From contig OZ241889.1 in the NCBI GenBank assembly GCA_965203355.1, positions 3,488,001-3,552,000 of the forward strand: a stretch of 64,000 bases of DNA, in the 5' to 3' direction. The notes beneath the pieces are model-generated. The model made no database searches. It was not told the origin of the DNA and was given only the letters and a program-made list of their open reading frames with translations. Source of the DNA: Candidatus Latescibacterota bacterium. Lineage in GTDB: Bacteria > Latescibacterota > UBA2968 > UBA8231. Position numbers and translations under genes: made by a program. Positions 1 to 64,000 of the stretch are shown in pieces. Position 1 is the first letter of the stretch; the number at the start of each line of letters is the position of its first letter.

Positions 1-1
1 G

Positions 2-1589: not shown

Positions 1590-1590
1590 G

Positions 1591-2076: not shown

Positions 2077-2077
2077 T

Positions 2078-2879: not shown

Positions 2880-2896
2880 CCCAAGGCGACTGCGCT

Positions 2897-3178: not shown

Positions 3179-3269
3179 GGGCGTGCTATGAGACGCCAAA
3201 AGCTAGCGTACATTTGAGGCCGCCCGCTAAGCATGGATTGACGCGCCGGCCGAAGGGCTGCTGTATGAT

Positions 3270-3362
3270 AGTGGTCAGTGGTCAGTGGTCAGTGGTCAGT
3301 CCCATCCGCTCGTAGGGTGTGGTGCGGCGACTGGTCACTGGCCACCGGCCACCGGCCACTGA
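3270..3362. repeat. Heptamer-armed inverted-repeat element, (AGTGGTC)4 - core - (GGYCACY)4
   Basis: Tandem heptamers on the left, imperfect reverse complements on the right; same family as 49593-49740. Confidence 0.88.
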
Positions 3363-3421
3363 TTGATCAGTTCACGCACCAATTATCAGTCGGCTCGTCC
3401 CCGTATTCCGAAACCATGAAA

Positions 3422-6301
<2,880 letters not shown>

Positions 6302-6304
6302 AAA

Positions 6305-7638: not shown

Positions 7639-8047
7639 GAAGAGTGCCGAGCAGTTCTTCGAGACGCTGAAGAACGCGAAAGCCAAGCGTATCGTGGACG
7701 TTCGCTTGAATAACGTCTCACAACTCGCCGGTTTCGCGAAGAAGAAAGATCTAGAATACTTCTTGGAAAACCTATGTCACATGGAATACGCGCACGTGCC
7801 CAGTTTGGCGCCGACAAAGGAGATGCTGGATACCTATAAAAAGAACGGGGGCCGCTGGGAAGACTACGAGCAGCGTTTCATGCGATTGATGGAAGAGCGA
7901 CGTATTGAGGAGAAGCTTAAGCCGGACATGTTAGAAGACGCATGTTTGCTTTGTAGCGAGGACAAACCTCATCACTGCCACCGAAGGTTAGTCGCCGAGT
8001 ACCTAAAGGAGCACTGGGAAAACGTCGAAATTGACCACCTCGGTTAG
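7610..8047 (+). CDS. DUF488 family protein (short form)
   Basis: TIGFTKKSAEQFF...DVRLNNVSQLAGFAK...CLLCSEDKPHHCHRRLVAEYL. Confidence 0.9.
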   Translation: MRILTIGFTKKSAEQFFETLKNAKAKRIVDVRLNNVSQLAGFAKKKDLEYFLENLCHMEYAHVPSLAPTKEMLDTYKKNGGRWEDYEQRFMRLMEERRIEEKLKPDMLEDACLLCSEDKPHHCHRRLVAEYLKEHWENVEIDHLG

Positions 8048-8059
8048 GAAGAGTAACAC

Positions 8060-36009: not shown

Positions 36010-38556
36010 GTGATGAAACTTTTGTATAGGTGCGTCTTGGTGCTAGTCGCCGCTTTGGTTTGGGCTGTGCCGGCTTGGACGCAAGCGACAGGTACTGTCG
36101 TCGTCACCGTAGTTGACGACGACAGCGGTCAGGTGTTGGAGGCGGCCTTGGTCCATATCCCGGCCTTGGACCTAGGCGGAATGTCGGACGCACAGGGCCA
36201 GTTTACCATGACCGACGTGCCGGTGGGCGAGCACGCGTTGCGCGCCGAACAGATCGGCTACTCGCCAGCGACCACCCCGGTTGTGGTAGAGGCCGGACAA
36301 ACCGCGACCGTCGAGTTGCGGATAAAACCCGCTGCGCTGCTTCTCGAAGAGTTGGCGGTGACCGGCACGGCTGTTAAGAACTCTCCGGTCAGTTCGACCT
36401 ACGCCGTTGCGGTGACGGGGCGGGACGAGATGGCCGAACAAGGGGCGCCCCAGCCGGTTGATTTCTTCAAAAATTTGAGTGCCAGTCACGGGGTGATCGG
36501 CGAGCGCAGCAGTTGGTACAATGCCAACCAAGCCGCCACTCTTTCCGAGAGCATTGCCAATGTCAATCTGCGCGGTCTGGGTGCTTCGCGGACGCTGGTG
36601 TTGATCAACAGCCGCCGCCAAACCTACGTCCCGGCGCGCTTGATCGGCGGGCGCTTCGTCGATGTAAATGCCATTCCCGCCATCGCCGTGGACCGGGTCG
36701 AGGTGCTCAAAGAAGGGGCCGCGGCTATCTATGGTTCGGATGCGGTCGCCGGGGTCGCTAATTTCTTGACCCGCTCCGACTTTGAGGGTTTTGAGGTTTC
36801 GGGAGCGCATGAATATATCGCTGGCGCGGGCGATTCCAACGTCGGCGCGATCTGGGGTGGAAAAATCGGCGCGGCTCATGCGATCGTCGCTGGGGAATGG
36901 CGGGGACGGCAGGCGCTACCTGTTTCTGAGCGGGACTATTTGCTACAGCCGTGGCATGGCGGCGGGCAGCGCCTGGGTTGGTCGAGCTTGGGCAACCCGG
37001 GCACCTTCGCCGTTGGTGCTCCGGCTCCGTGGACCGCTGCCATTCACGCTCCGCGTTGCGAGCAGTTTGGCGGTTTCCGGGAATCTTGGACCTGCCGCTT
37101 CCGCTATCAGCAGTACGAGAATCTAATTGAGGACATGAGCCATGTACGCGCTTTTGCCGAGATCAATGGCGAATTGGGCAATGGCACGGAGTATCACTTA
37201 GAGGGGCTGTTGGCCCAAGCTGAGATCCCCGAATGGTACACGACCCCTTCGTATCCGCCTTTTCCCTTGACCGATACGAGTATCATGGAAGTCGCGCCCA
37301 ACCATCCGGGCCGGCAGGCATTCTGTGCGGACTACGGCGCTGAAGAAGGCGACCTGTACTACCGCGAATGCCAAGGCGAAGAGAACTGGTATTTCAACGG
37401 TCGCCCGTTTGGCAACTCGGGGCCCGGGCGCATACTGGGCCGGGACTCTCGCACTTTGCGCTTTGCCGTTTCCGCCCATGGTGACTTTTCGTCGTTTGGC
37501 GGTCGAGAGACTCATTTTGACCTAGGGCTGTCCTATTCTCGCACGGAGGGTAACTACAATCTGCCGGGTGTGTACATCGAGCGGCTGTTTCTTGGCTTCC
37601 GCGGGTTTGGCGGCCCGGATTGTGGTGTCGGCGTGGAGGCCGATAACACGTCTCTTGCTGGGATGCGGCTCGGTCCACGCAACGGCCAAGTGGCGGGTCA
37701 GGGCGACTGCCAGTACTACAATCCCTTTGGCAATGCCATTGAGTTCGCGGAGCAAATCGGCGCGAATTTTGCGACCCAAGCGAATCCCGATTACCGCCCC
37801 GAGCTTGCCAACAGTTCCGAGCTGCGGCACTGGCTCAATCAGGAAGTTGATATGCAGAGCACCGCGGATATGCTGGTGGCCGATGCGACTCTGACGGGAA
37901 CGTGGATCGAAAACGTCGCTAGCTACGCGGCCGGCTACCAGTTCCGTTTGCTCAATGCCAGCGGCGAGCCCAACGACGAGGGCGACGTGACCATCAATCC
38001 TTGTCCGGTGGTAGGCGATGCGAACTGCTCAGCCGAGGATATGTTCGGGCCTTATGCGTTTACCAATGTCCACCGGCCCTATGATGAATCGCAGACAGTG
38101 CATCGCTTCTTTGCCGAGATTCCCCTGAGCTTGGGCTCGCGCTTTGATACCCAACTGGCCGCCAACTACGAGTTCCACGACGTGGCGAGCAGTTTCGATC
38201 CCAAGTTTGGCTGGCGCTATCAGCTAGTGGAATCGCCGACTCAATCCTTGTTTCTGCGCGGCTCGGTGCAGACGACGTTTCGCACGCCATCGCTGGACGA
38301 CGTAAATGAAAGTCCGCTGACAACGCTGGAGTGGATCAATGAAACGGGTGCCTACCAAACGGTGGACCGATTTGGCAGCAAGGACCTCAAACCCGAACAG
38401 GCTTTCACTTATAACGCGGGATTTGTCTTGGTCTCGGAGGCGGGTTTTGATGCGACACTCGACTACTGGGGCTACGATTTCAAGGATGTCATCGGCTCCA
38501 TGCCGCACGGGGCTATTACCGCCTTAGAAGCCTTTTTAAAATTCACTTTTAGTTGA
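36010..38556 (+). pseudogene. TonB-dependent receptor with N-terminal carboxypeptidase-regulatory-like domain, 3'-truncated at an IS5 element
   Basis: Signal peptide; plug motifs NLRGLG..RTLVLIN and RVEVLKEGAAAIYGSDAVAGV; native sequence ends at 38526 and the last 9 aa are IS-encoded. Confidence 0.87.
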
Positions 38557-39454
38557 TTTTCCCTTGAAAGGACGTACCCATGAACCGACCTTTAGGTTTC
38601 ATCACAAAGCCTGAAAGGGGGGTTATATATGGGTACGCCCGGTGTAGAATATGCGACGGATTTGACCGATGCACAATGGCTGTTACTTGCTCGTCTGCTG
38701 CCTCGGGGCCGTTGGCGTCAAGGGGGTCCGGGTCGGCCACCTCGGGCGGTGCGTTTGGTGATGAATGGTCTACTGTATCGGGCTAAAACCGGGTGTCCTT
38801 GGCCGATGCTGCCGCGGTGTTTTGGGCCTTGGCAAACGGTGTATGGCTACTTCAATCGCTGGCGTCAACAAGGGGTTTGGCCACAGATACTCGACGCCCT
38901 AACCAGGCAGGATCGCATCCAGCACGGCCGGGCACCGACCCCGTCGGCGGGGATCGTGGACGCGCAGAGCGTTACCACGGCCACCCAAGGTAAAAGTGTT
39001 GGATACGATGCCGGCAAGAAGGTTAAAGGACGCAAACGCCATCTGTTGGTCGACACCGAGGGTCGTCTGATTGAGTGTGTGGTGACCGCTGCTTCGACCT
39101 CGGATGCCGACGGCTTGAAGACCTTGTTGAAAACCTACTTTTCACCCACGGTACAAAGGTTACGCAAGCTGTGGGTGGATGGAGCCTATAAAGGCGCGCC
39201 GCTTAGGCAATGGGTGGCTCAAAAAAAAAACGCACAAAATAGACCTTGAAGTCGTATCCAGACAAGGCTCCGGCTTTGAGGTGCTCCCTCGTCGTTGGGT
39301 CGTCGAACGAACGTTTGCTTGGCTACTCAACTATCGAGTCCATGCCAAAGACTACGAGCACCTAACTTGCAATAGTGAAGCCTTTATCCAAATCGCGATG
39401 ATCCATTTGATACTCAAGCGAATCGCTAAAAAAAATGAATTTTAAAAACGCTTC
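38527..39454 (+). mobile_element. IS5-family insertion sequence (IS1031-like), 928 bp
   Basis: Terminal IRs GAAGC(C/G)TTTTTAAAATTCA(C/T)TTTT, 22/24 match; TTA on both flanks (38524-38526, 39455-39457). Confidence 0.92.
38629..39445 (+). pseudogene. IS5-family DDE transposase, frameshifted at an A10 run (39221-39230)
   Basis: YATDLTDAQW, DAQS, GYDAGKKVKGRKRH in ORF1; [10 protein letters not shown] in the +1 frame; removing one A gives a single 271-aa protein. Confidence 0.88.
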
Positions 39455-39509
39455 TTAATGTTCCCGCCATGCGCCTTCTCGCCCTCTTTCATTTTTGAAA
39501 TCGCTGGAC

Positions 39510-39567
39510 ACGTACACACAAAAGCGGCGTCTGTATTTTGGCACAGGCACCGCTTTTGTGTGTACGT
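39510..39567. terminator. Long hairpin (25-bp arms, 23/25 paired, 8-nt loop); probable original terminator/stabiliser of the minus-strand ABC operon
   Basis: ACGTACACACAAAAGCGGCGTCTGT ... ACAGGCACCGCTTTTGTGTGTACGT; no clear U-tract. Confidence 0.5.
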
Positions 39568-39593
39568 ACGAGGCAGTCAAGGCCAAGTGCCGT

Positions 39594-39651
39594 GTGTTGT
39601 GCCAGTAGGCACGTTGATACACGGATTTTCCGCTGACGGCCAGTTCTGCCA
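39594..39651 (-). repeat. Decayed direct copy of the 3' part of the ABC substrate-binding protein gene (partner 40733-40791)
   Basis: 55/59 identity (3 substitutions, 1 deletion). Confidence 0.92.
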
Positions 39652-39692
39652 GTTTGTCGGAACGCCATAACGCACACGGCTGTAATCATCAA

Positions 39693-40688
39693 TCAAAGCC
39701 GTTGACAAATGACGATGTTTTCCTCTTGCATTGTGGCAGCCTTCTTACCCACAATATTGGATGGACTATTCTGTTGGGGCATGCGTTTGTTAGGTATATT
39801 CCTAACGATGGTTTCCCGATGAGAAAATCCATGTTGAGCGAAGGCAAAAACAACAAACTCATCTGTCGGCAGGATGACATCTTTAACGCGGCGATTACCA
39901 ACCACATAGCAAATCGTTGCATGTTTTGCAAGCAGCGGCGCAATGCAATCTATACTGTGCTCTAAATCAATGTAAAATGCCTCGACTTGGATAGCGCGTT
40001 TTTCATCCACGGCACGGATTTTTCCAATCGCTTCCGCAACGGGAGACGCACACAATTTTCTTTCTTTCTTTTTGCCGCCCATTGATATTCGGTCAACTTT
40101 ACGCGAATCCAGCAAGCCGATCCAGTCAGCCGATAAACGCGAAAACTGACCATACGCAACTGTTGTTTGTGAGTCGCCATACGGCGGAGATGTGATGACC
40201 AAATCGAATCCTCTCAACGGTTGTCTTTCGGGCAACTCGCCATTTGCGGTATTCTTACCCGAGACAAATATATCGACATTTTTTCTTTTATTTAGATAAC
40301 TTCCAAAACCCGACCGATTGCGGCTTAGCTTGCTCTGCAAAATACCGAAAACATCCGGCTTGAAGTTTTCCATTTTCTGAGACGATATTCTGTTCAATTT
40401 GAACTCGCTATTCTTCGTGTAGGAACATTCCCGAACTGTCTCTGAAAATGCGACCCAAAAGAAATTGCGAACTCCCTCATCTTCTATGGCGTAAATGTAT
40501 GAACGAAGAAAAGATAGGTACGTCGTAACATCTTTAGAGAACCAATAGTCCAAGTTTAGGACATCAGGAACTGATGTATAAGGTATTTGATCAGAGAAAC
40601 CAACCTTAAAAATAGTGTTATCTAAATCCCGCAAATGAAAATCGAGGATTTGTAGGGAAATCGGCGAGGTCTTAGCTATTGCGACCAG
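39693..40688 (-). pseudogene. 5'-truncated N4-cytosine (SPPY-type) DNA methyltransferase
   Basis: DLVITSPPYGDSQTTVAYGQFSRLS, VVGNRRV, RNIPNKRMP; AT-rich; no motif I or start codon; begins immediately after the SBP stop. Confidence 0.8.
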
Positions 40689-40689
40689 A

Positions 40690-42420
40690 CTACCCCGCCA
40701 CCGGCTCCAGCCCGAGCAACACCAACAGCCACGTGTTGTGCCAGTAGGCACTGTTGATATACGGGTTTTCCGCTGACGGCCAATTCTGCCAATAGGTCTG
40801 GTTGTGCGGGATGCGGTGATACCACTGAACAATGGGGATGGCGGGCAACTCGGCCAGCCAGATTTCCATGGCCTGGCGGAAGAGCGTTTGCAGCACCGGG
40901 TCGTCGGGCGCAGTCTGCCCCATCTGATCGACCAGTGCGTCAAACTCTGGATTCGACCAGCGCCAGAACCGCTCAGAATGCGTACCGGTGGGCCGGACGA
41001 AACGACTGTGGTAGAGCCGCAAGGTGAAATACGGATCGCGTACGCTCGCGCCATTGCCCATCAAGAAGGCCCGCGCCGAACCCTGCGCCATGCGCGAAAA
41101 CGCATCGGGCGTCATGCGGAAGTCAGCGTCGAAACCTGCGCGTTCCAACTGCGCCACCAAAACCGGCGTTAAGTCGGTAAAGATGTCGAAAATGTCAATG
41201 ACGATCTTGAGCCGCTCGCCCTCTTTGGTCCAGAAACCCTCGGCGTCCTTGCTCCACCCCTTGCGCTCCATAATCGCCGCGGCTTTGGCCGGATCGTGGA
41301 CGCCGATCTCGTACTTTTCCACCAAGTCTTGAATCGCGTCGGTGTATTGGCGAATGGGCGGGAAGTCCGGCAGCGGCAGATGCGATTTGGTCCCCGCTCC
41401 CTGCCAGCCAATGGCCACCAATTGGTCGCGGTCAATGGCGTAGTTAATGGCGCGGCGGATCGCCGGGTCGTTAAATGGCGGCTCCAAGTTGTTGAATCCC
41501 AAGCTCACCGGCCACCAATCGAGATACCCGAGCGGCAACGCGCGCCCGGTCCACGTGGAGACGTTGGGATTGGCGTCGAGAATCGACTGGATGTTCGGCG
41601 GTCGGATGTCGAGGCAGGTGTCCATGGCGTTGGAGATCAAGTTCTGCACCCGCTTGGTCTCCTCCATGTGCGTCAGATAGATGATGCGCTCCACCGCCGG
41701 GGGCTGGTGAAAGCCCGTCTTCTGCGCCCACCAACCCGGGCGCAAATCCCACACCCGTTGTTCGGGCACGGAAATGAAAATTTCGTACGGGCCGCTGGCC
41801 ACCGGCCAGCCTTTTTCCGGGTCGAAGTTGCTAAACGTCTGTGGGTCTTGGCCCTGCCAAATGTGCTTGGGCACGATGGGGATGCCGTTGTCGAAATTGT
41901 TGGTGAAGTAGCTGAATACAAAGCGCGGATTGGGCTTGGTCAGCGCGATTGTGGCCGTGTGGTCGTGGGTAGCTACGGCGCTTTTTACCCACGTCTGCAT
42001 GTCGGTGGAAAAAGACAGATGCGGCGCGTGGTCCTTGAGCATGTTGATCGTAAAAACCAAGTCGTGCGCCGTCCACGGCTGCCCATCGCTCCACTCAACC
42101 CCCTCGCGGATGTGAATGGTGACCGCGGTGTAATCGTCGTTGTACTCGTGCCCAGTGGCAATCCAAGGAATGATGTTGTCGGCGTGTGGGCTGTAGGCGT
42201 TGTAGAAATACAGGGGCTCGTACTGGAAGTTCCAACCCGTCTTGGAGACGCCGGTCAGCAAAAACGGATTAAACGAGTTGTAGTCCTTGATCTGGCCGCT
42301 ACAGTCCTGCAAACTGGAACAATCCATGACCAAGGTGCGATTCCGAGGCACATTCTTGTGCCCTTCGCCGCTGCAACCGACCCATAGTACACTCACTAGG
42401 CACAACAACAGAACCTGCAT
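40690..42420 (-). CDS. Peptide/oligosaccharide ABC transporter substrate-binding lipoprotein (family 5)
   Basis: Lipobox WVGC, WSDGQPWTAHD, DPAIRRAINYAIDR. Confidence 0.92.
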   Translation of the reverse strand: MQVLLLCLVSVLWVGCSGEGHKNVPRNRTLVMDCSSLQDCSGQIKDYNSFNPFLLTGVSKTGWNFQYEPLYFYNAYSPHADNIIPWIATGHEYNDDYTAVTIHIREGVEWSDGQPWTAHDLVFTINMLKDHAPHLSFSTDMQTWVKSAVATHDHTATIALTKPNPRFVFSYFTNNFDNGIPIVPKHIWQGQDPQTFSNFDPEKGWPVASGPYEIFISVPEQRVWDLRPGWWAQKTGFHQPPAVERIIYLTHMEETKRVQNLISNAMDTCLDIRPPNIQSILDANPNVSTWTGRALPLGYLDWWPVSLGFNNLEPPFNDPAIRRAINYAIDRDQLVAIGWQGAGTKSHLPLPDFPPIRQYTDAIQDLVEKYEIGVHDPAKAAAIMERKGWSKDAEGFWTKEGERLKIVIDIFDIFTDLTPVLVAQLERAGFDADFRMTPDAFSRMAQGSARAFLMGNGASVRDPYFTLRLYHSRFVRPTGTHSERFWRWSNPEFDALVDQMGQTAPDDPVLQTLFRQAMEIWLAELPAIPIVQWYHRIPHNQTYWQNWPSAENPYINSAYWHNTWLLVLLGLEPVAG

Positions 42421-49592: not shown

Positions 49593-49740
49593 GGTGGTCA
49601 GTGGTCAGTGGTCAGTGGTCAGTGGTCAGTGGTCAGTTGCCAGTGGTCAGTGGTCAGTGGTCAGTGGTCAGTTGCCAGTCCCCCGATCGCTTCTGGGGTG
49701 GGCTGGGACTGGTCACTGGTCACAGGTCACTGGCAACTGA
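49593..49740. repeat. Heptamer-armed inverted-repeat element, 12 x AGT(GGTC/TGCC) - core - 4 x GG(TC/CA)AC(T/A)
   Basis: Direct reading; core resembles that of 3270-3362; overlaps the last codons of the TPR gene. Confidence 0.9.
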
Positions 49741-53266: not shown

Positions 53267-54379
53267 ATGAGATGGGCCCTCTTTCTCGCGGCGGTCCTGT
53301 GGGCGGCTTGGCCGCTCGCGGCCGAAGACCGCCCCGGCCTCGTGCTCGACGGCCAAGCCGCCCGGCTCGTCGTCGATTTAGGCGGCGGCTCCATTGCCGA
53401 CTTCCACCTCAAAAGCAATCCGCTCAATCCCCTGCAATGGGACTCGTGGTCTTTCGGCGAGACCCCGGACCAAGCACCGCCGATAGAGCCGCGCTCCATG
53501 GGGCACTTCCTCTGCCTCGACCGCTGGGGACCGGCCACCGCAGCCGAGCAGGCGCACGGCATGGGTTGGCACGGCGAGGCCACGCGCGTGTGGTGGACCG
53601 TAGATGAAGACGTCCGCGCAGCGGACGGGCACCTCGTGGCCCAAATGTCGGCCAAGCTGCCCTTGGCCGGCCTCGAGGTCTCGCGGTCGATTCGCCTGGC
53701 TCAGGATCGGGCTGTCTTTGCAGTCGCCGAAGCCGTCGCCAATACGCGCCATTTGGGCCGCGTGTACAACATCGTCCAGCACCCGACCATTGGCCCGCCC
53801 TTTTTAGACGAGAGCACTCGCGTCGACGCCAACGGCACACGCGGCTTTATGCAGGAGACGCCCATGCCAACGCCCGAAGACCCAGCGGTGCGCTGGCCTC
53901 ACGCACGCAAAAAGGACGGCACCGAGGTCGATATTCGCTACTTGACGAGCGATGCTTCGCCAGCGGTCGTTTCGTACATAATCGAGGAAAAATACGGCTG
54001 GACCACGGCCATCAACGCCAGCAAAGGGCTGCTGATCGGCTACATCTGGCCGACGGAAGAATATCCTTGGTTCGACGCTTGGCGGCACGTCCGCGACGGC
54101 CAGCCCTTTGCCCGGGGCCTAGAGTTCGGCACGACCGGCCTGCACCAACCCACACCAGTACTCGTGCAAAAAGGCCGCATATTTGGCCGGCAAATTTTGC
54201 GTTTCATCGACGCTGACGAGACCCAAGTTTTCACCTACGCCAACTTTCTCATGGAGATTCCCACCGACTTTGCCGGCGTCGCCGATGTCGAATACGCGGC
54301 CGGCCGGCTCCTAGTGCGCGAGGACGCCGAGCCGGGCCGCGAACTGACGATGGAAGTGGGAGCGCTTTTTGCGTGGTGA
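53267..54379 (+). CDS. Secreted hypothetical protein (galactose mutarotase/aldose epimerase-like fold likely)
   Basis: Signal peptide; GHFLC...HGEA...QHPT.G.PFL...RGLEFG; AAGGAG RBS. Confidence 0.65.
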   Translation: MRWALFLAAVLWAAWPLAAEDRPGLVLDGQAARLVVDLGGGSIADFHLKSNPLNPLQWDSWSFGETPDQAPPIEPRSMGHFLCLDRWGPATAAEQAHGMGWHGEATRVWWTVDEDVRAADGHLVAQMSAKLPLAGLEVSRSIRLAQDRAVFAVAEAVANTRHLGRVYNIVQHPTIGPPFLDESTRVDANGTRGFMQETPMPTPEDPAVRWPHARKKDGTEVDIRYLTSDASPAVVSYIIEEKYGWTTAINASKGLLIGYIWPTEEYPWFDAWRHVRDGQPFARGLEFGTTGLHQPTPVLVQKGRIFGRQILRFIDADETQVFTYANFLMEIPTDFAGVADVEYAAGRLLVREDAEPGRELTMEVGALFAW

Positions 54380-57300
54380 AGTGCGCCCTCCGCCCAGGAC
54401 AGATACTGACCGGCCCGCTGTTTAGCGAGCCGATGCGCGTGGAAACGGTGCGCGCCAACGGCACTGATTATCTGGCGGTCGGCCTGGTCGGCCAACGGTC
54501 CGAGCAATTCCGTCAGGTCGTGCTCTCTCCCGCTGACATTTCCAATTTGACCATTGCCGACCCAGTGCTTTCCTACGACGGCGACGGGCGGCTTTTGCGC
54601 CTCGGCCTCCAAGCTTACGCGCTCGGCATAGCCTACGAGTTCGATCCCTATTTCGGGCTTTCCATCTCGCGCGTCGATCCGCTGCCGCACCAACTCGAAG
54701 CGGTGTACGAGCACCTCCTCAAGCTGCCCAGTGTGCGCTTCTTGCTCGCCGACGACGCCGGCGCGGGCAAGACCATCATGGCCGGGCTCTTGATCCGCGA
54801 GCTCAAGCTCCGGGGTCTCATCGAACGAGTGCTCGTCGTCTGCCCGGCCAACCTGACGTTTCAGTGGCAGCGCGAGCTCAAGGAAAAGTTCGACGAGAAG
54901 TTCCTAGTGATGAAGGGCAGCGATATCCGCGATCAATTCGGGGTTAATCAGTGGCTAGAGCAAAAGCAAATCATCACCTCGCTCGACCTCGCCAAGCGCA
55001 CCGAGATCTTGCCCGGCCTGCAACAGGTGCCTTGGGACCTGGTGATTATTGATGAAGCGCACCGCATGTCGGCGCGGGACGAGACCCACAAGAGCCAGCG
55101 TTACCGACTGGGAGAATTATTGCGCGACTGCGCCGATCACCTGCTGTTACTGACCGCCACGCCCCACCGGGGAGACCCGCAGAACTTCACCCTGTTCCTG
55201 CAACTGCTCGATCGCGATGCGTACGCCGATGTGCGTTCAATCCGCGAGGCCATGGCGCGGCGGCGCGCCCCTTTTTACCTGCGGCGCACCAAAGAAGCCA
55301 TGGTGTATTTCCCCGAGCGTCAGACCGACGGAACATGGGCTGCGAAGCCGGTTTTTACCAAACGCATCCCGCACACCGCCGAGTTCGCTATTGAAGGGGC
55401 TGAGTTCTCGCTGTACCAAAATGTCACGCGGTTTGTGAAACGGCAGAGTGCCCGCGCCGCCGCACAAGGCGACGACCCGCGCGCCCGAGCCGTTGGTTTC
55501 CTGATGTCGCTGTACCAGCGGCGGCTCGCCTCCAGCACCTACGCCATGCGGCGGTCGCTCGAAAATCGCGCCCGGCGGCTGGAGGATGGTCTCAAGCGCG
55601 CCGAGGAGTTGGCGAGGACCGCACCGCCAGACCTTTCCGATTTAGCAGAGTTGGAGGAATTGGAAGATGCCGAGCGCGAGCGTCTAGAGGCCATGCTAGA
55701 GGCCATTACGCTGGCCGGCAACGCCGCGCAGATCCGCGCCGAGATCCGCGAACTTCGCCAGTTTGCCCAAGAAGCTAAAGCCGTCGAAGACTCAGGCTGC
55801 GAGGCAAAGCTCGGACATCTGCGGAAGATCATGCGGGAGGAAGGGTTTTTCGACCGGCCCGATCAGCAACTGCTGCTCTTCACCGAATTCAAGGACACCC
55901 TCAACTACCTGATGGAGCACCTGCAAGCCTGGGGCTTCCGCGTCGGCTGCATCCACGGCGGCATGACGCCTGGCTCACGCCGCGAACCGGGCAGCCGGCT
56001 CTACACCGAACAGCAGTTCCGCGAAGGTGCCATCCAGATTTTAGTGGCCACCGAAGCGGCTGGGGAAGGCATCAATCTTCAGTGCTGCCACATCCTCTTC
56101 AACTACGACATTCCTTGGAACCCGAACCGGCTCGAACAGCGCATGGGCCGCATCCACCGCTATGGCCAGCGACGCGATTGCCTAATTTTCAACTTCGTAG
56201 CGACCAACACTATCGAGGGGCAGGTGCTCCAGCGCTTGTTGGACAAGTTGCAAGAAATTCGCGACGCCCTCGACGACGACGCCGTGTTCAACGTGATCGG
56301 CGAAGTCTTACCGTCGGTCCGCGTCGAGGGCGTACTGCGGGACTACTACGCCGGGCGGTTGGGGGACTCTGACCTTGAAGAGCGGCTCTTGCAAGACGTG
56401 GATGAAGGCCGCTTCCGCGACATCTGCCAGACGGCGTTGGAAGGGTTGGCCTCTAAGAAGATCAACCTCGACATGCTCGTCGAGCGCCGGGCCAAGGCCC
56501 AAGAGCGGCGCGTCGTACCCGAGACCATTGCGCGGTTCATCGCCGAGTGCGCCCAACACGCGGCCCTAACGCTGAAGCCGGTACACCACTTGGCGCACAC
56601 CTTCGATCCGGGGCGCACCCCGTCCAAGTTGAAGGAATACGAGCGCGAGTCGGACTGGAGGCTCTCGGAACTGGCGATGCGTTATCCACGCTTGTCAACG
56701 GACCGCGACACCGCCGAACAACACAACCTCGAATGGGTGACCCCAGGGCACCCCCTGTTTGAGGCCCTGCGCCGGCACAGTCGCCAGCTCGGCCAAGAGG
56801 CCTTTGCCAAGGGGGCCTGTTTCCATTCCCTCGCACACACCGCACCGGCGCGCCTCGACTTCTACCGGGCGCAGGTCGTCGATGGTCTCGGCCAGGTGAT
56901 TCACGAACGGTTGTTCACCGTGGAGTTGACCGATGAAGGCGCACCCAGCCTCCGCGAGCCGGATGTCCTCGGCAATCTCAGTCCGGCTCCTGCTCCGGGC
57001 GATCTCCCGCCCGTAGCGGCTCTCCCAGAGGCGACCGCTTGGCTCCGCGAAAACGCCTTGGCACCCTTTATCAACGAAGTGCGCACCGAGCGTCTGGCCG
57101 AAGTCGAGCGCATTGCCAAGCACGTCGAACTGTCCTTGACCGAGGTCATACAGCGGGCCGACGAGGAGATTGGCCGCGCCGAAGAAGAGCCGCGTAATAA
57201 CGCAATCGGTGCTGAGGGCCGTTTGGCGCAGGCCGAAGCCCGCCATGCTGAGGTAATGGCCCGCCGCGACCGTCGGCGTGAAGAGTTTGAGCGGCAGCGG

Positions 57301-57795
57301 GCCCTGACCTTACAGAGAGTCGAGCGGCTCGCCAGCGTCTTGATCCTGCCTCACCCCGAGCGCGACACCCTCGATGTCCGGCGCTTGCGTCCCCATCCCG
57401 AAACCGAGATGACGGCCATGCGGGTGGTCGTGGAGTACGAGACCGCGCAGGGCCGTCAGGTCGAAGACGTCCACGAGAAAAATCTTGGCTACGATATAAC
57501 CAGCCTCGATCCAGCGTCCGGCGCGTTGCGTCTGATCGAGATAAAAGGACTCGCCGCCGCCACCGGCAGCATTCTGCTGACGCCCAACGAGCGGCGCGTC
57601 GCCGAAGATCGCCGCGATTGCTACTGGCTCTACGTGGTCACCCACTGCGCCAGCACCCCGGAGCTTCAGGAGCCGATCAAAGATCCAGCCCGGTTTCCGT
57701 GGCGCGAATTCACCAAAGTGGAGCACTACTATCTGAGCGTTGACACGCTCAAACAGCCGATGGAAATTCGGGAAGACGAAGGGCATTACCGATGA
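54373..57795 (+). CDS. SNF2-family helicase with C-terminal DUF3883 nuclease domain
   Basis: PLPHQ, LLADDAGAGKT, DEAH, LTATPH, EGINLQ, EQRMGRIHRYGQ, LGYDITS...IEIKG; start GTG 54373 or 54376. Confidence 0.93.
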   Translation: MVKCALRPGQILTGPLFSEPMRVETVRANGTDYLAVGLVGQRSEQFRQVVLSPADISNLTIADPVLSYDGDGRLLRLGLQAYALGIAYEFDPYFGLSISRVDPLPHQLEAVYEHLLKLPSVRFLLADDAGAGKTIMAGLLIRELKLRGLIERVLVVCPANLTFQWQRELKEKFDEKFLVMKGSDIRDQFGVNQWLEQKQIITSLDLAKRTEILPGLQQVPWDLVIIDEAHRMSARDETHKSQRYRLGELLRDCADHLLLLTATPHRGDPQNFTLFLQLLDRDAYADVRSIREAMARRRAPFYLRRTKEAMVYFPERQTDGTWAAKPVFTKRIPHTAEFAIEGAEFSLYQNVTRFVKRQSARAAAQGDDPRARAVGFLMSLYQRRLASSTYAMRRSLENRARRLEDGLKRAEELARTAPPDLSDLAELEELEDAERERLEAMLEAITLAGNAAQIRAEIRELRQFAQEAKAVEDSGCEAKLGHLRKIMREEGFFDRPDQQLLLFTEFKDTLNYLMEHLQAWGFRVGCIHGGMTPGSRREPGSRLYTEQQFREGAIQILVATEAAGEGINLQCCHILFNYDIPWNPNRLEQRMGRIHRYGQRRDCLIFNFVATNTIEGQVLQRLLDKLQEIRDALDDDAVFNVIGEVLPSVRVEGVLRDYYAGRLGDSDLEERLLQDVDEGRFRDICQTALEGLASKKINLDMLVERRAKAQERRVVPETIARFIAECAQHAALTLKPVHHLAHTFDPGRTPSKLKEYERESDWRLSELAMRYPRLSTDRDTAEQHNLEWVTPGHPLFEALRRHSRQLGQEAFAKGACFHSLAHTAPARLDFYRAQVVDGLGQVIHERLFTVELTDEGAPSLREPDVLGNLSPAPAPGDLPPVAALPEATAWLRENALAPFINEVRTERLAEVERIAKHVELSLTEVIQRADEEIGRAEEEPRNNAIGAEGRLAQAEARHAEVMARRDRRREEFERQRALTLQRVERLASVLILPHPERDTLDVRRLRPHPETEMTAMRVVVEYETAQGRQVEDVHEKNLGYDITSLDPASGALRLIEIKGLAAATGSILLTPNERRVAEDRRDCYWLYVVTHCASTPELQEPIKDPARFPWREFTKVEHYYLSVDTLKQPMEIREDEGHYR

Positions 57796-58172
57796 GCGAA
57801 AAGATCAAGCATCTCGAGTTCATTCAAGGCGTGGTCAATCGTCTTGGCACCAACTCGTTCCGTATCAAGGGGTGGGCCGTCATACTCGTGTCGGCACTTC
57901 TCGCTCTGATCGTCCGGGAAGATCGGCCCGATCTCGCTTGGATCGGACTCGTCCCGGTGTTCGTTTTCTGGGGGCTCGACAGCTATTTCCTGTGGCAGGA
58001 GCGGTTATTTCGCGACCTTTATGATCACATCCGCTTGCAAGAAAACCGTGTAGATTTTTCGATGGATACCTCGGCGTTTCGCCGATCTTGGCTTGGCGCG
58101 GTATTTTCGAGGACGCTACTTCCGTTTTACGGTGCATTGGCCGTAGCGGTCGCTATAGCCCTGTTTCTCTGA
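57792..58172 (+). CDS. Small 3-TM membrane protein, probable effector partner of the TIR protein
   Basis: KHLEFIQGVVNRLGTNSFRIKGW, WGLDSYFLWQERLFRDLY; three hydrophobic segments; ATGA-coupled to the helicase. Confidence 0.75.
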   Translation: MSEKIKHLEFIQGVVNRLGTNSFRIKGWAVILVSALLALIVREDRPDLAWIGLVPVFVFWGLDSYFLWQERLFRDLYDHIRLQENRVDFSMDTSAFRRSWLGAVFSRTLLPFYGALAVAVAIALFL

Positions 58173-58199
58173 TAACCCGCCAAAAAGGAGTATGAGCAG

Positions 58200-58697
58200 A
58201 TGAAACGCAGAGTGTTTTACAGTTTTCACTACGATCAAGATAGTTGGCGAGCCGCTCAGGTACGCAACATCGGGGCGATTGAAGGAAATGAACCTGCTAG
58301 CGACAATGACTGGGAGGCAATCAAAAAGGGTGGGGATGAGGCAATCAAAAAATGGATCGCCGGACAGATGCAGGGCCGCACCTGCTGCGTTGTGCTGGTT
58401 GGTTCGAATACCGCCAATCGTAAGTGGATCAACCACGAGATCATCGAGGCATGGAACAAGGACATGGGTGTCGTCGGGATACACGTTCACGGCCTGAAGG
58501 ACAGCGATGGACACACATCATCAAAGGGCAAAAATCCATTCGACTTCATTACCTTGGGAAAGCAAGGTGAAAAGTTGTCATCCGTCGTGAGGTGTTATGA
58601 TCCATTGGGCAAGAACAGTCGCGAATGTTATGACTGGATCGCCAGGAACCTCGCGAACGAGGTGGAGGAAGCCATTCGGATTCGGAATGCACGATAA
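58200..58697 (+). CDS. TIR-domain protein (ThsB/DUF1863 MTH538-like)
   Basis: RRVFYSFHY..D.WRA.QVRN, TANRKWINHEI (catalytic Glu), GVVGIH. Confidence 0.9.
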   Translation: MKRRVFYSFHYDQDSWRAAQVRNIGAIEGNEPASDNDWEAIKKGGDEAIKKWIAGQMQGRTCCVVLVGSNTANRKWINHEIIEAWNKDMGVVGIHVHGLKDSDGHTSSKGKNPFDFITLGKQGEKLSSVVRCYDPLGKNSRECYDWIARNLANEVEEAIRIRNAR

Positions 58698-58730
58698 CTT
58701 TTCAGTCCTGTTTTCTGATGAGATGAGCCG

Positions 58731-58855
58731 ATGCCCCCCGCAACTGCAAGCGTCTGGCGGAAGTGGATTTTCCGATCGTGGTGCTGTCGCGGTACGCGAC
58801 GCGGGAAAAGTCGATTCGGCCCCCCCTCGACGCTTCGTATGTGGTGGCGCGGCGA
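58731..58855 (+). pseudogene. Decayed duplicate of the 5' end of the second DUF1156 methyltransferase
   Basis: Reads [37 protein letters not shown] versus [39 protein letters not shown] at 59706-59837; its ATG is out of frame. Confidence 0.87.
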
Positions 58856-58858
58856 TTC

Positions 58859-58887
58859 TTGACAGCATGTTTTGCTATCATTAGGCT
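58859..58887 (+). promoter_or_regulatory. Promoter TTGACA-N17-TAGGCT with overlapping operator palindrome TGACAGCA-N5-TGCTATCA
   Basis: Direct reading; the 7/8 inverted repeat overlaps the -35 and spacer upstream of the antitoxin. Confidence 0.68.
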
Positions 58888-58917
58888 CTTTCGCCTCAAA
58901 CCGATAAGGAGGCTGCG

Positions 58918-59175
58918 ATGAGTTCCACTGTCACTGTCCGCGATATTGACCCAGCAGACAAAGCCTGGCTCAAACGAGAAGCGCGCCAAGTCGGCGTGTC
59001 AATGGAAGAGTTTATCCGCCGTCTGATCCGCGAGAAGCGTGCCAAGGCCGATCACCGCACAACACCTTCCGAAGTTTTCAAGCGGTATTTTGGCCCCGAA
59101 CATGGCGTCGATCTGCCGGAGTCTGGGCACTATGTCTACCGAAAGGTCGAGTTCGCTGGTCAGAGTGAGGCATGA
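58918..59175 (+). CDS. FitA/VapB-like ribbon-helix-helix antitoxin
   Basis: TVTVRDID...WLKREA...SMEEFIRRLI; AAGGAGG RBS; ATGA overlap with the PIN toxin. Confidence 0.82.
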   Translation: MSSTVTVRDIDPADKAWLKREARQVGVSMEEFIRRLIREKRAKADHRTTPSEVFKRYFGPEHGVDLPESGHYVYRKVEFAGQSEA

Positions 59176-59615
59176 ACGCTCCTGTTGCGTGGCTCCTCGA
59201 TACGAATGTCATCTCGGAGATGATGCGCCCGCATCCAGAACCGCGTGTCGCTGCGTTTCTGGATAAGATCGCTGACCAAGGAATTGGCCTTGCATCCATT
59301 ACTGTCTGGGAAATTCTCAACGGCATTGGCCTCCTCAATGTCGGACGGAGACGTGACACCCTCGCCGAGCGGTTTCAGAACCTTCTCGACGATCTCTTTG
59401 AGGAACGGATATTCGATTGGACTTTGGACGACGCTCGAGAATGCGCCCGCATCATGGAAGCGAAGCGGCGGCGGGGCGAGGCACTCGCAGACCACCTGCC
59501 GGACGCCTTTCTCGCGGCAACGGCGATCCGACGCAGCCTCACCATCGTCACCCGAAATACAAGTGAGTTCCGCAATACAGGCGTTGAAGTTGTCAACCCT
59601 TGGGCTGATGGGTGA
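59172..59615 (+). CDS. vapC: VapC/FitB PIN-domain toxin
   Basis: LLDTNVISE, ITVWEI, DAFLAATA, IVTRN..EF...VNPW. Confidence 0.92.
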   Translation: MNAPVAWLLDTNVISEMMRPHPEPRVAAFLDKIADQGIGLASITVWEILNGIGLLNVGRRRDTLAERFQNLLDDLFEERIFDWTLDDARECARIMEAKRRRGEALADHLPDAFLAATAIRRSLTIVTRNTSEFRNTGVEVVNPWADG

Positions 59616-59705: not shown

Positions 59706-62700
59706 ATGATCCCCAGAAAATGCAAGCGGCTCGCCGAAGTCGATTTTCCCATCGCCGAGGTGTCGCAGCACGCGGCGCGGGAGAAGTCGATTCGGCACGG
59801 CCATCCCTCAACGCTGCACCTGTGGTGGGCGCGGCGACCGTTGGCTTCGTCGCGGGCGGTGTTGCTGGCATTGCTGCTGCCGGACCCGTGCGACGAGCAC
59901 TGCCCGGCGGGCTTTAAGGAAGCGGCGCGTCAACTGCTTCCTTCGGTCGGCGGCGGGCGGGGCGAGACCGATGAAAAGTTGCGCCAAGGCTTGCTCAAGT
60001 TCATCGCCAATTTCGCCAACTGGGACAATGCGGCGGACCGCACCCATCTCGACGTGAGCCGGGCGTTGGTGAAGGCGGCGCATGGCGAAGATCCGCCGCT
60101 CGTGGTGGACCCGTTTGCGGGCGGCGGCTCAATTCCGTTGGAAGCGTTGCGGCTGGGCTGCGAGGCGTTTGCCAGCGATCTGAATCCGGTGGCGTGTCTG
60201 ATTCTCAAGGTGATGCTGGAGGACATTCCGCGTCATGGGCCGGGGTTGGCCGAGGAGTTGCGGCGGGTCGGCGGCGAGATTAAGCGGCAGGCCGAGCGGG
60301 AATTGGCCGATTTGTATCCGAGCGACCCGGACGGAGCGACGCCGATTGCCTATTTGTGGGCGCGCACGGTGCGCTGCGAAGCGCCCAACTGCGGCGCAGA
60401 AATTCCGCTGATGCGTTCGTTCTGGCTGTGCAAAAAGGCCAAGCGCAAGCGGGCTTTGCGGCATCGCGTCGAGCGGTGCGCGGGCGGGTCGCCGAGCGTC
60501 AAATTTGAGGGGGGGGGGGGGGGTAAATAGTTGTTTTTTAACAACTTATGATAAAAATTCAAAAGAGCCGCCGAGCGTCAAATTTGAGGTGTTCGAGCCA
60601 AAAGCGGACAAGGAGGTGCGCGGCGGCACGGTAGCGCGAGCGCGAGCAACGTGTCTGTGCTGCGGCGCGGTGCTGCCGCCGGAGCGAGTGCGGACGCAAC
60701 TTGCGGCCCAACGGGGCGGCGCGGATGTGATTTTTGACGCGGAAGGGAAGCGGGCGGGCGGGGCGCGAATGACCGCGGTGGTAACGCTCAAGCCGGGGCA
60801 GGCCGGGCGGCACTATCGCTTGCCGAATGATGCGGATTACGCGGCCGTGCAAAAGGCGCAGGCGCGGATAGCGCAGATTTTGGCGGAATGGGAACGGAAC
60901 GGGAAACAGGGGCTTTGCCCGGTGCCGGATGAGCCGTTGCCGCCGATCGGTACTTTGGGCTTCCGTGTGCAACGCTACGGCATGATGGAGTGGGGGGATT
61001 TGTTCACGGCGCGGCAGAAGGTGGCGTTGGGGGTGTTGGGACGAAAAACAGCAGAGCTTAAGCCAAGCATTCATCAGACCCTAACCGCATTGCTCTTAGG
61101 CAGAATGGCGGATGGGAATAATTCACTTACTCGCTGGGAAAGCGGTGCCGAAAACCCTGTAAATCTATTTGCACGTCAAGCCATTCCTGTAGTGTGGGAT
61201 TTCTGTGAGTCATCGCCAAAAAGCAATGCACGGGGAGTTTTCCTGTCGGGTATCACCGCAGCATGTAAGGTCATAGACGCTGGTCGATCCGTGGCGGAGG
61301 GCCAAGTCCAATCCGCCGACGCCATCAACTACCCACTCCCCGATCAAACCACTAGCGTCTGGTTCACCGATCCGCCCTACTACGACGCCATTCCCTATTC
61401 CGATCTCTCCGATTTCTTCCTCGTCTGGCTCAAGCGAACGCTCCCCGATAATCCATTGCTGCACGATCCGTTCGATCCGGATAATCCGCTCTCGCCCAAA
61501 ATAGCCGAGGCCGTCCAAGACGAAGTCAAATGCGATAATGAGGGTCGCCCCAAAGACCGCGAGTGGTTTGAGGAAACCATGGCAAAAGCCTTCGCCGAAG
61601 GTCGCCGCGTCCTGACGGAAGACGGCGTCGGCTCCGTCGTCTTCGCCCACAAAACCACCGAAGGCTGGGAAGCCTTACTCTCCGGCATGATTCGCGGCGG
61701 CTGGACCATCACCGGCTCGTGGCCGATTGCGACCGAAATGGCGTCCCGTCTCCGCGCCCGCGATTCCGCCGCCCTCGCCACCAGCATCCACCTCATCTGC
61801 CGCCCCCGCCCCGCAGACGCTCCCATCGGCGATTGGGCCGATGTCCTGCGCGAACTCCCCGTCCGCGTCGCCGACTGGATCGAACGCTTGCAGAGCGAAG
61901 GCATCCGCGGCGCCGATCTGGTGTTCGCCTGCATCGGCCCGGCCCTCGAAATTTTCAGCCGCTACCGCGCCGTCGAAACCGCCGAAGGCCATATCATCGG
62001 CCTGCCCGATTACTTGGAAAAAGTCTGGGAAGTCGTCGGTCGCGCCGCCCTGCAACAGGTACTCGGCACCGCCGAAGCGCGAGCGCGCAACGGCCTGTCC
62101 GGCGCACTCGAAGAAGACGCCCGCCTGACCGCGCTCTTCCTGTGGACGCTCCAAAGCACCACCCCTGCCGAGCAACAAGCCGACGCCGCCAGCGATGACG
62201 ACGACGCCAAAGTCGCCGCCACCGGATTCGCGCTCCCCTTCGACGTGGTGCGCCGCTTCGCCCAGCCCATGGGCATTGACCTCGACACCTGGACCAACCG
62301 CATCATCGGCCAAGAAAAAGGCGTCGTCCGCCTGCTGCCCGTAACCGAGCGCGCCAAAAAGCTATTCGGCGAAGAAGGCGCTGCTGCCGCCGCCCTCGCC
62401 ATCGAACGCGACCCGCAACCGACGCTCTTCCCCGCCGACGATGCGCCCACACTCGTCCGCGAGCCGAGCGCACATTACAGCGAATCCTCCGACGACCCTC
62501 TCGCCGCAACGCTCGGCGACACCACCCTCGACCGCGTCCACACCGCCATGCTGCTCCAGTCCAGCGGCCACGCCAACGCCCTGCGGACGCTCATCGGTGC
62601 CGAACAAGATCGCGGCCCGGACTTCCTCCGCCTTGCCAACGCCCTATCCGCCCTCTATCCTCAAGGCTGCAACGAAAAACGCCTTCTCGACGCCATGTTG

Positions 62701-62718
62701 CTGGCCGTGCCGAGGTAA
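59706..62718 (+). CDS. Second DUF1156 adenine methyltransferase, out of frame at a G15 tract (phase-OFF state or pseudogene)
   Basis: ORF 59706..60530 ([22 protein letters not shown]) continues in the +1 frame to 62718 (TDPPYYD); G14 would give one 1003-aa protein. Confidence 0.88.
60490..60589 (+). repeat. 21-bp direct repeat (CGCCGAGCGTCAAATTTGAGG at 60490 and 60569) enclosing a G15 tract (60509-60523) and an AT-rich palindrome
   Basis: Direct reading; repeat offset 79 bp; AGTTGTT-TTTT-AACAACT at 60529-60546. Confidence 0.95.
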
Positions 62719-62738: not shown

Positions 62739-64000
62739 ATGAACCAAATCACGCTCAAAAACTTTCGCTGCTTTCGGGAGGAACAGACTGCCCGCTTAGC
62801 ACCGCTGACGCTGCTCGTCGGCGAGAACAGCACCGGCAAAACCTCGTTCATGGCTATGCTCCGAGTACTTTGGGATATGGTCTGTCGAGGGGAATCTCCT
62901 GACTTCAAGGAGGATCCCTACGACCTCGGCAGCTTTGACGAAATAGCACACTTCCGCGGCGGACGGGGCGATCGGGCAACCACTATTGAGGCAGATTTTG
63001 AGATCATTCCTGTACCCAAATCCAAAAAAAATGAACGGTTTCGTTTTGAAGTAACTTTTCAAAAAAAGGGGACCGTACCAGTACCAGTACGAAGACATTT
63101 TTGGCAAGAGGATGTGTGGGTAGAGTTTTCGCAATTGGCTGGCCAATTTGAAGAAAGTGAGATTCGCTTCGGAACCAAAAGGGGCACTTGGAAGCTTGAA
63201 CATACGCATACTACCGAACTTATCAGTAGTCTGACGGGTATGAATTTTCCTCTTTTTTTATCTATTAGCCACTTAATTACAGAAAACTCTCAATGGACCG
63301 CACTGTCAGGCTCGAAACAGCCTATACCTATAGACGAAGACTTTGAACAAATCCATAAAATTTCGTCCTTTCTATTCGAACGCTATCGCTCTTACTCAGA
63401 AAGGCCGTATGCCAGCGCACCGGTCCGCTCCAAACCGCGTCGCACATACGACCCCGCACGACCAACACAGGACCCCGAGGGCAATTACATCCCCATGTAT
63501 CTGTCCAACTTGTATTTTCAAGACAAAAATAAATGGGGAAAACTCAAAGAAGCCCTCGAAGATTTCGGTAAAAACGCAGGGCTTTTTGATGAAATTTCAG
63601 TCAAACCTTTGGGAAAGAAGGAGACAGAGCCTTTTCAAATGCAGGTCCGAAAGTCCGGGAAAAGGATTAAGGGGCCACAGCGGAACTTGATTGACGTAGG
63701 TTATGGGGTAAGCCAAGTACTCCCCGTCGTCACCGAGTTACTGCGTCCCGACGCCCCGTCCATGTTTCTGCTACAGCAACCGGAAGTACATCTCCATCCC
63801 AGCGCCCAAGCCGCGCTGGGTAGCCTGTTCTGTCAAGTCGCCGATCCGCAGCGTCAGTTGGTGGTCGAGACGCACAGCGATCACCTGATCAATCGGGTGC
63901 GGATGGATGTTCGCGATGGCGATGGCAAGCTAAAACCCGAAGACGTTTCCATCCTCTTCTTTGAACGGCGAGACCTCGACGTACACATTCATTCGCTGGA
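62739..64000 (+). CDS. ABC/AAA_21-type ATPase (DUF3696-like), runs off the window end; absent from the ORF track
   Basis: Manual translation: MNQITLKNFRCF...LVGENSTGKTS...NLIDVGYGVSQVLP...LLQQPEVHLHP...VVETHSDH. Confidence 0.88.
   Translation, partial: MNQITLKNFRCFREEQTARLAPLTLLVGENSTGKTSFMAMLRVLWDMVCRGESPDFKEDPYDLGSFDEIAHFRGGRGDRATTIEADFEIIPVPKSKKNERFRFEVTFQKKGTVPVPVRRHFWQEDVWVEFSQLAGQFEESEIRFGTKRGTWKLEHTHTTELISSLTGMNFPLFLSISHLITENSQWTALSGSKQPIPIDEDFEQIHKISSFLFERYRSYSERPYASAPVRSKPRRTYDPARPTQDPEGNYIPMYLSNLYFQDKNKWGKLKEALEDFGKNAGLFDEISVKPLGKKETEPFQMQVRKSGKRIKGPQRNLIDVGYGVSQVLPVVTELLRPDAPSMFLLQQPEVHLHPSAQAALGSLFCQVADPQRQLVVETHSDHLINRVRMDVRDGDGKLKPEDVSILFFERRDLDVHIHSL

Follow-up and report, generated by a model that had tools for sequence, protein, structure and literature searches.

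The stretch of DNA analysed here, 64,000 nt of a Candidatus Latescibacterota genome (contig OZ241889.1; called the window below), carries a gene for a DUF1156 N6-adenine methyltransferase of a BREX-related defence locus, and this gene is broken by a short insert with a long G tract (Table 1). An earlier note on this DNA had described the insert as 79 bp long, bounded by 21-bp direct repeats and carrying G15 followed by TAAATAG; all of this was confirmed in the sequence, and the repeats are exact. The left repeat ends with AAATTTGAGG (60501-60510) and includes the first two G's of the tract, which is the only run of more than six G's in the window. TAAATAG follows directly. The palindrome AGTTGTT-N4-AACAACT, which had likewise been pointed out, proved to be the core of a larger imperfect palindrome of 25 nt. 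Both off-frame stops lie inside it, TAA at 60524-60526 and TAG at 60528-60530, and the 45 nt 3' of the tract share the lowest GC content of any 45-mer of the window (0.20).

Translation from the ATG at 59706 bore out the frames described in the earlier note. With G15, as sequenced, the protein ends at TAG after 274 aa; G13 and G16 end at TAA and yield 272 and 273 aa, respectively. G14 reads through to 1003 aa, G11 to 1002 aa and G17 to 1004 aa, and deletion of one repeat together with the 58-nt core (79 nt) results in 977 aa. The motif FAGGG and the catalytic DPPY are intact in the window gene, DPPY (61369-61380) being situated downstream of the frame break and absent from the truncated forms, as had been claimed. 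A long homopolymer within the open reading frame (ORF), upstream of the catalytic motif, sets the frame by its length. At 3n+2 G's (11, 14, 17) a full enzyme of 1002-1004 aa with 25-27 extra residues could form, whereas at other lengths no more than three codons past the tract would be translated, and neither the recognition region nor DPPY would be reached.

The housekeeping DNA of the window is 84-91% identical to that of ten Candidatus Latescibacterota genomes. The gene was matched in 22 of 75 family genomes, 16 of which span the insert site. Because all 16 are empty at this position, the insert is the derived state, in agreement with the earlier view that it was acquired. Of 119 homologous proteins other than the window's own, 116 were inspected at the site and three were not; none contains the peptide encoded by the insert. 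It is likewise missing at the site in 80 metagenome loci, of which 70 were anchored and 10 were judged by eye. The commonest sequence of the orthologues at the site is GGGGAGCC(G/A)CCGAGCGTCGAGTT(T/C)GAGG or close to it, and at the right junction they have GGGGAGCCGCCGAGC, a match to the GAGC-C of the distal flank. Since the orthologue consensus contains it, the GAGC before the window's second repeat can be regarded as ancestral target sequence. The orthologues and the window's second copy both have GAGC before the repeat, and for this reason the true duplication is probably about 25 nt long, or the right junction has a 4-nt microhomology (GAGC). The AAATTT of both repeats is rare (0 of 86 DNA homologues), and a lysine at this position is present in the proteins P0060 and P0112.

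In the AlphaFold model of an empty orthologue the site lies in a strand-turn-strand (residues 244-267, local predicted local distance difference test score, pLDDT, about 60-74). Foldseek with this model returned nothing at E <= 0.001, and the methyltransferase has no sequence relative in the PDB. Other natural in-frame insertions occur at the same turn, namely 63 residues in P0096 and a transposase-like piece in the loci L163 and L195. The landing site is thus predicted to be a beta-hairpin turn that tolerates insertions, and for this reason a full enzyme appears possible at 3n+2 G's. These insertions, in DUF1156 methyltransferases from other habitats, are transposase-like or resemble REP (repetitive extragenic palindrome) sequence; the turn may be an insertion hotspot.

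Public sequencing runs were used to follow the tract in other samples. The region is present in six runs, of which four were compared (X1, X3, X5 and X6, from three studies) as Logan contigs, which drop rare variants. All four contain insert-bearing contigs. A 608-nt contig of X5 is identical to the window over 60191-60798 and has G15, whereas contigs of X3 (a different sample) and X6 (a different study) show zero substitutions and one G fewer, that is G14, and are in frame. X5 and X6 also have contigs of a second insert-bearing allele across the site. It is diverged by about 8-10% from the window and exceeds an empty allele by 64 and 62 nt, respectively; in X3 it extends into the tract. A third allele, from the sponge-metagenome run X1, is 76 nt longer than the empty allele and differs by eight substitutions in 235 nt. 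By net length two of the six spanning contigs are in frame and four are out of frame. The insert is therefore not an assembly artefact, and in these contigs its length varies between natural samples. That it arose as a loop at k=21 or as a poly-G chimera is hardly credible: the length of the repeats does equal a common k-mer size and poly-G is a familiar sequencing artefact, but single contigs in three runs of two studies cross both junctions without substitution, and the inserted sequence is that of a repeat family native to these bacteria. The diverged allele (X3 c10, X5 c16, X6 c25) accompanies the window allele in three runs, where the ratio of their depths stays steady at about 1.5-1.7, and may be a paralogue or belong to a co-resident strain.

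The length difference itself could be technical. On this explanation the true tract is G14 everywhere, forming a fixed in-frame insertion, and the G15 of the window and of X5 is a homopolymer miscall. Two of the three contigs of identical sequence have indeed G14, X5 is possibly the window's own source, and the library types are not on record. We consider this improbable, as the X5 and X6 copies of the diverged allele are 2 nt apart in length, which is harder to ascribe to technical error than a one-base shift, and none of the three diverged contigs is in frame by net length. Moreover, tracts of the donor family described below range from 6 to 26 nt, and loci with matching flanks differ in tract length (14/12, 12/15 and 9/13), two length-variant loci being on k141-named contigs, presumably from short-read-type assembly. 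The earlier proposal of an ON/OFF module was upheld as regards the slippage tract, the G14/G15 alleles of different samples and the frame set by them. Precise excision between the repeats had been named as a second way to restore the frame. Joints shorter by 79 nt in X3 and X1 were considered as the excised form and rejected, since they belong to distant homologues (53-61 substitutions in 300-360 nt), and a same-strain empty allele was not seen among the listed joints of these contigs.

The earlier note had also asked for other inserts of the G(n) type. A search with the pattern G8-TAA-N4-TTG-N6-AA-N2-ACTTA gave 70 matches in one-genome-per-species contigs, 50 of them titled Latescibacterota. 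With one mismatch allowed the module was found in 14 of the 75 family genomes with up to 34 copies each, and the reversed-pattern control gave none. When the palindrome was searched without the tract, 65 of 70 occurrences in five genomes were still located at a G tract (comparison by hand); tract and palindrome therefore form one unit. What the note had not seen is that the insert of the window is a reversed fragment of this module. Both degenerate module patterns had no match in viral contigs, and an exact 27-mer of the insert had none in metagenome contigs. The donors closest to the window by sequence are L041, L101, L019, L057 and L036. In X1 loose ends at 60512 and 60548 lead from tract and palindrome into other contexts, a clue to the donor.

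In their own orientation the donors have a poly-C tract, and the genes that follow on the C strand encode mostly proteins with signal- or lipoprotein-like N-termini (read by eye). On this strand the palindrome reads H/R-K-S-L-K-N-N-x-L-P(n), and the minus strand of the window's copy reads KLLKNNYL where donors have K-S-L-K-N-N-x-L. Of 90 donor copies, 81 have an in-frame ATG on the upstream side, and in 66 of the 90 (12 of 17 clusters) it is found 25-40 codons upstream in an open frame, compared with a mean of 4.7 and a maximum of 12 in shuffles. The frame behind the tract ends at the start of the next gene in 40 copies, often with an ATGA overlap, and continues into the protein in a further 14, so that the leader is coupled or fused to secreted-protein genes in 54 of 90. 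One frame reaches the first ATG of the next gene in 58 of 76 donors versus 15.5 expected, or 10.7 versus 4.0 over 15 clusters, the expectation coming from shuffles that preserve base composition only. As assembled, eight of the 40 coupled and seven of the 14 fused copies are in the ON frame. We infer that tract length in the donors gates the downstream gene by translational coupling or fusion. Rho polarity, a known mechanism, possibly acts in the OFF frames. Examples of this leader module, which is spread through the genus (L001-L070, L101-L140), are L126, L127, L111, L133, L114 and L138, with the leader ATG 30-36 codons upstream, K-S-L-K-N-N-x-L-P(n) and secreted repeat-protein genes downstream.

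We considered why the palindrome is conserved. A conserved RNA hairpin was rejected: of 62 distinct sequences, 30 have A-C as their innermost pair and only 19-24 have Watson-Crick pairing at pairs 4, 6 and 7, and the predicted folding is weak (-5.8 kcal/mol). Compared with WATCAANNNNTTR, which we take to be the IHF binding consensus, none of the 90 copies has a perfect half, 89 of 90 have one or two mismatches per half, and the window has two and one. Our best guess is a putative protein-binding site combined with a coding constraint. For one donor family we also asked, on inspection by eye, whether a sigma-54 promoter precedes it, but the spacing did not fit.

Outside the Latescibacterota the pattern (L042, L069, L053) was met in Thermoguttaceae (G16 before a PEP-CTERM-like gene), Vicinamibacterales (G19) and Holosporaceae (G11 in an ORF start), and also in Bacteroidales loci. 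In L238, L240, L244 and L245 the palindrome is on the other side of the tract and overlaps the ATG, followed by G11-G26 in the first codons of related membrane-protein genes. A third family (L230-L232, L253, L254, L257) consists of a degenerate AT-rich element, TGC, G12-G18 and TACA in the 5' part of genes for large secreted proteins (C strand).

The junctions suggest how the fragment may have entered the gene. The module of the window is reversed relative to the working frame of the donors. The end of the left repeat resembles the donor flank AATTTTGA-G(n), and AATTT(T)GA or AATTGA stands right before the G run in eight of 90 donors, as in the window's target; four of the five closest donors are among these eight. 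At the right junction GAGC is common to the insert end and the ancestral target. Most simply, the insert would be a template-switch graft of a reversed donor fragment, and this junction signature fits the microhomology template switching described for E. coli in the relevant part of PMC3161906. A resident contingency module, made up of the poly-C tract and the 25-bp palindrome, would supply a reversed fragment of 58-60 nt. The growing strand, having copied the gene up to ...AAATTTGAGG, would anneal to the donor's ...AATTTTGAGG, copy the G run, the palindrome and 20 nt more, and return to the gene 21-25 nt upstream at GAGC; the return upstream would account for the 21-nt duplication. Either a DNA template switch or target-primed copying of RNA is possible as the route.

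A dedicated mobile element, MITE-like (miniature inverted-repeat transposable element) or a retro-copied unit with an enzyme making long target duplications, could also leave an exact 21-nt duplication, and the earlier note had spoken of a purpose-built cassette with target duplication. Among 110 other module copies, however, comparable direct repeats surround only two, L112 and L115, which are paralogues in one genome (G005). There the module and about 260 nt lie between repeats of 75-80 nt ending in G7-8, with the same polarity as in the window; the repeat is, as we take it, partly REP-like. In L101 a tandem palindrome - 12 nt - G21 - palindrome is found, in which the tract of the first module has decayed. 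Insertion events of this kind seem rare. The ends of the insert are the G run and AAAAGAGC, and no terminal inverted pair is present among the repeats listed. An insertion sequence or MITE was rejected because terminal inverted repeats are lacking and target duplications are absent around most copies. The shared polarity of L112/L115, the L101 tandem and the variable distal length, which resembles that of 5'-truncated target-primed copies, speak for an element. Given the 108 other copies without comparable flanking repeats, the REP-like character of the L112/L115 repeat and a case of replacement without duplication (the mod gene described below), we regard it as very improbable.

In our view the insert probably works as an ON/OFF switch and was grafted from the resident family of poly-C leader modules. 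Through slipped-strand mispairing in the tract, the BREX-related system would then alternate between ON and OFF among the cells of a population, as is the case for Streptomyces pglX; the ON protein could be active, switching could be reversible within a lineage, and the population might benefit. Several observations have to be set against this. All read evidence comes from contigs of unrecorded library type; sequencing platforms can err by one base in a 15-mer, so that a homopolymer miscall could produce the shift; X5 possibly represents the window's source; a mixture of tract lengths within a sample was not seen in the contigs; and the frame of the diverged alleles was judged from net length only. 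A search for the distal flank, allowing three mismatches, gave no match in the 75 family genomes, among which the window's own genome is not included, and the exact donor was thus not found. As to the donors, 36 of 90 are neither coupled nor fused, and their counts are inflated by paralogues. The model of the empty orthologue is poor overall (mean pLDDT 46), and its local secondary structure alone was used. Finally, the DUF499 ATPase expected of the system would lie outside the window, which ends 1.3 kb after the methyltransferase gene.

The read-through and the stops, which had suggested a designed cassette, are inherited properties. The frame of the G strand is open in 76 of 90 donors and TAA is fixed in the donor palindrome, so that neither requires selection, which is a further point against a selected switch. 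Stops in both other frames within four codons are found in only four of 90 donors, but TAAATAG is also present in the intergenic donor L036. The graft may accordingly have been an accident without adaptive role, G15 slipping as any such tract does and the gene being tolerated or on its way to loss. The orientation opposite to the donors' working frame is in line with this, as are the restriction of the insert to one lineage of the family and the tract-free broken copies of the gene in relatives (L073, L075, L076, L081). On the other hand, the diverged insert-bearing alleles co-occur with the window allele in three runs, which argues that the insert persisted or recurred, and the gene shows no sign of decay. 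Its dN/dS against 11 orthologues is 0.16 and 0.11, compared with 0.04-0.21 for orthologue pairs, without excess amino-acid change, although the test has low power for a recent insertion. Long G tracts are also found in two other methyltransferase genes of a relative. We hold an accidental graft to be rather unlikely.

These two genes came from an inspection of comparable tracts, in which 40 other tracts of at least 11 G's were fetched out of 165 counted in 19 genomes, many of them module copies. A type III mod gene (L264/L226, G049:C1:1055675; PADLOC E 4e-209) is frameshifted by G14, its product being 652 aa with G14 and 930 aa with G13. Here an AT-rich stretch ending in GTGCAAAATTTGCA-G14-AGAA replaces the ordinary sequence without a duplication, and all 21 spanning orthologues are devoid of it; this G14, too, was acquired, and the case parallels that of the window. 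A near-identical AT-rich piece stands at the start of an unrelated membrane-protein gene (L233, G052); the piece was found in two of 75 genomes. For the G11 in a type II methyltransferase gene of G049 a graft was rejected: the single orthologue has an interrupted run of equal length, which indicates that this tract arose in place. In the same genome a G13 lies inside an apparent CRISPR spacer between 41-nt repeats (L225, G049:C1:592994).

A broader idea, which we put forward only tentatively and which may well not hold, is that tract and palindrome form a portable switch. The genome-wide pool of poly-C leaders would be copied repeatedly into new genes, defence methyltransferases especially, by priming at AATTT-GA and the G run, and would confer phase variation in one step; the window gene would have been caught in the act, with L112/L115, L101 and the mod gene as further cases.

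The earlier view that the gene may serve defence was supported. Judged from its gene content, the locus is a type-1 BREX-related system, i.e. a predicted Hma system, with the SNF2 helicase as its predicted effector. PADLOC recognized HmaB in the two halves of the methyltransferase (E 7e-51 and 2e-63), and motif I and DPPY are present, as in Hma. Within HmaB the enzyme falls into a divergent subfamily: a full-length orthologue scores about 370 bits, compared with 1535 for the other HmaB of the window. Three of three orthologous loci continue with an ORF of 918-925 aa, which was identified as DUF499/HmaC in the one scanned. No PLD Pfam domain is encoded at the locus; NOV_C is found instead, which sets the effector apart from that of MANTIS. 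The ATPase downstream could be affected by polarity in the OFF state.

Table 1. Features of the methyltransferase locus and of the insert (window coordinates)
Feature	Position	Strand	Basis or remark
SNF2 helicase with C-terminal NOV_C nuclease-like domain, HmaA-like	54373-57795	+	Pfam SNF2-rel_dom, Helicase_C, NOV_C; PADLOC HmaA E 1.4e-171
Small membrane protein and TIR protein (PDC-M50A/B or ThsB-like), FitA/PIN toxin-antitoxin pair	57792-59615	+	Pfam, PADLOC
DUF1156 N6-adenine methyltransferase gene, HmaB-like, BREX-related type 1	59706-62718	+	Pfam DUF1156 E 1.3e-23
Left 21-nt direct repeat copy, CGCCGAGCGTCAAATTTGAGG	60490-60510	+	Exact-repeat comparison
G15 homopolymer, slippage tract	60509-60523	+	Reads as poly-C in donor orientation
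Imperfect palindrome of the donor module, 25 nt, AT-rich	60524-60548	-	Sequence comparison with donors
Donor-type distal flank, 20 nt	60549-60568	+	Final letters GAGC-C match ancestral target
Right 21-nt direct repeat copy, CGCCGAGCGTCAAATTTGAGG	60569-60589	+	Exact; spacing of 79 to left copy
AAA_21/AAA_15 ATPase directly downstream, runs off the window	62739-64000	+	Pfam, PADLOC

Type III mod genes reportedly undergo phase variation through simple sequence repeats and thereby control phasevarions. As in these, the methyltransferase described here is a DNA adenine methyltransferase that would be under homopolymer frameshift control; it differs in that it comes from an uncultured Latescibacterota lineage and a BREX-related/Hma system, and its tract from a reversed fragment of another locus family. 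Poly-C/G tracts of mod genes are mentioned in PMC3711429. The closest precedent is the Pgl/BREX system of Streptomyces coelicolor, in which expansion and contraction of a G tract in pglX turns the system on and off, according to the account in PMC4365076, citing Sumby and Smith 2003. Both tracts lie inside a methyltransferase of a BREX-type defence system, but the present one is in a DUF1156 enzyme of the BREX-related type, is known from sequence, and did not originate in native coding sequence: it came with an insert that was acquired, is accompanied by a duplication and can be traced to a donor family. The DUF499-centred BREX-related type-1 system is called Hma in the sections of PMC12839542 and PMC11232893 that treat it. 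With Hma and MANTIS the locus shares the SNF2 helicase-nuclease, the DUF1156 N6-methyltransferase, the DUF499 ATPase in orthologous loci, and accessory defence genes between the core genes; MANTIS/Gao_RL (BREX-related type 2) differs by a PLD-helicase and MtsB, as outlined in 10.64898/2026.09.23.753747. In the deletion experiments of the same paper, loss of the MANTIS methyltransferase is not toxic and abolishes restriction. If this can be carried over, an OFF state would be viable. As in the microhomology-mediated break-induced replication case in E. coli, as far as PMC3161906 describes it, we find a duplication, foreign junction sequence and short microhomologies; in contrast, the captured piece is here a hypermutable tract that would create a switch, the scale is tens of bases, and the mechanism is deduced from the junctions.

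The donors themselves resemble known contingency loci. Campylobacter, Neisseria and Bordetella have many poly-G/C tracts before or inside surface-protein genes, and the many tracts per genome at surface-protein genes are common to both. The donors, unlike these, share a conserved palindrome and a leader of 30-36 codons, the ON frame of which ends on the next start codon. In the open-access literature we found no description of the insert, of phase variation in DUF1156 genes, for which the earlier note had assumed as much, or of the donor module, and term searches of the accessible text of PMC12839542, PMC11232893 and 10.64898/2026.09.23.753747 gave no mention of phase variation in the family.

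The origin of contingency loci is usually ascribed to growth of a repeat in place. In the present case one can see the empty ancestral state as well as the donor family and the junctions, and together they point to the grafting of a switch into a gene in a single event, which suggests that genes can acquire an on/off switch ready-made. With this gene, the phase-variable defence genes would come to include BREX-related/Hma methyltransferases, and this in a lineage that is uncultured. The switching principle is already known; the family concerned, the visible one-step origin and the donor module are not described as far as our searches reach. The donor family stands as a separate finding: a genome can contain as many as 34 of these poly-C leaders, which apparently gate secreted repeat proteins by coupling of leader frame and start codon. 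This offers a testable model for surface variation as it may occur in uncultured, host-associated bacteria.

Some further features of the window were recorded. A second, intact Hma system is present at 1-11401, comprising the end of HmaA, HmaB (1535 bits) and HmaC (1161 bits), and a short truncated duplicate of the hmaB start lies within it at about 2150-2260. Two paralogous small genes are located at 2421-3180, the first having about five 54-nt tandem repeats and a coiled-coil-like product. Tandem arrays of the heptamer AGTGGTC occur at 3270-3300, just upstream of this other hmaB, and at 49594-49680. At 38556-41054 the end of a TonB-receptor-like ORF adjoins an IS5-like transposase ORF. Next comes an ORF that resembles a methyltransferase gene but encodes an odd N-terminus (gene identities read by eye), and 19-nt repeats form a pair at 39594 and 40733.

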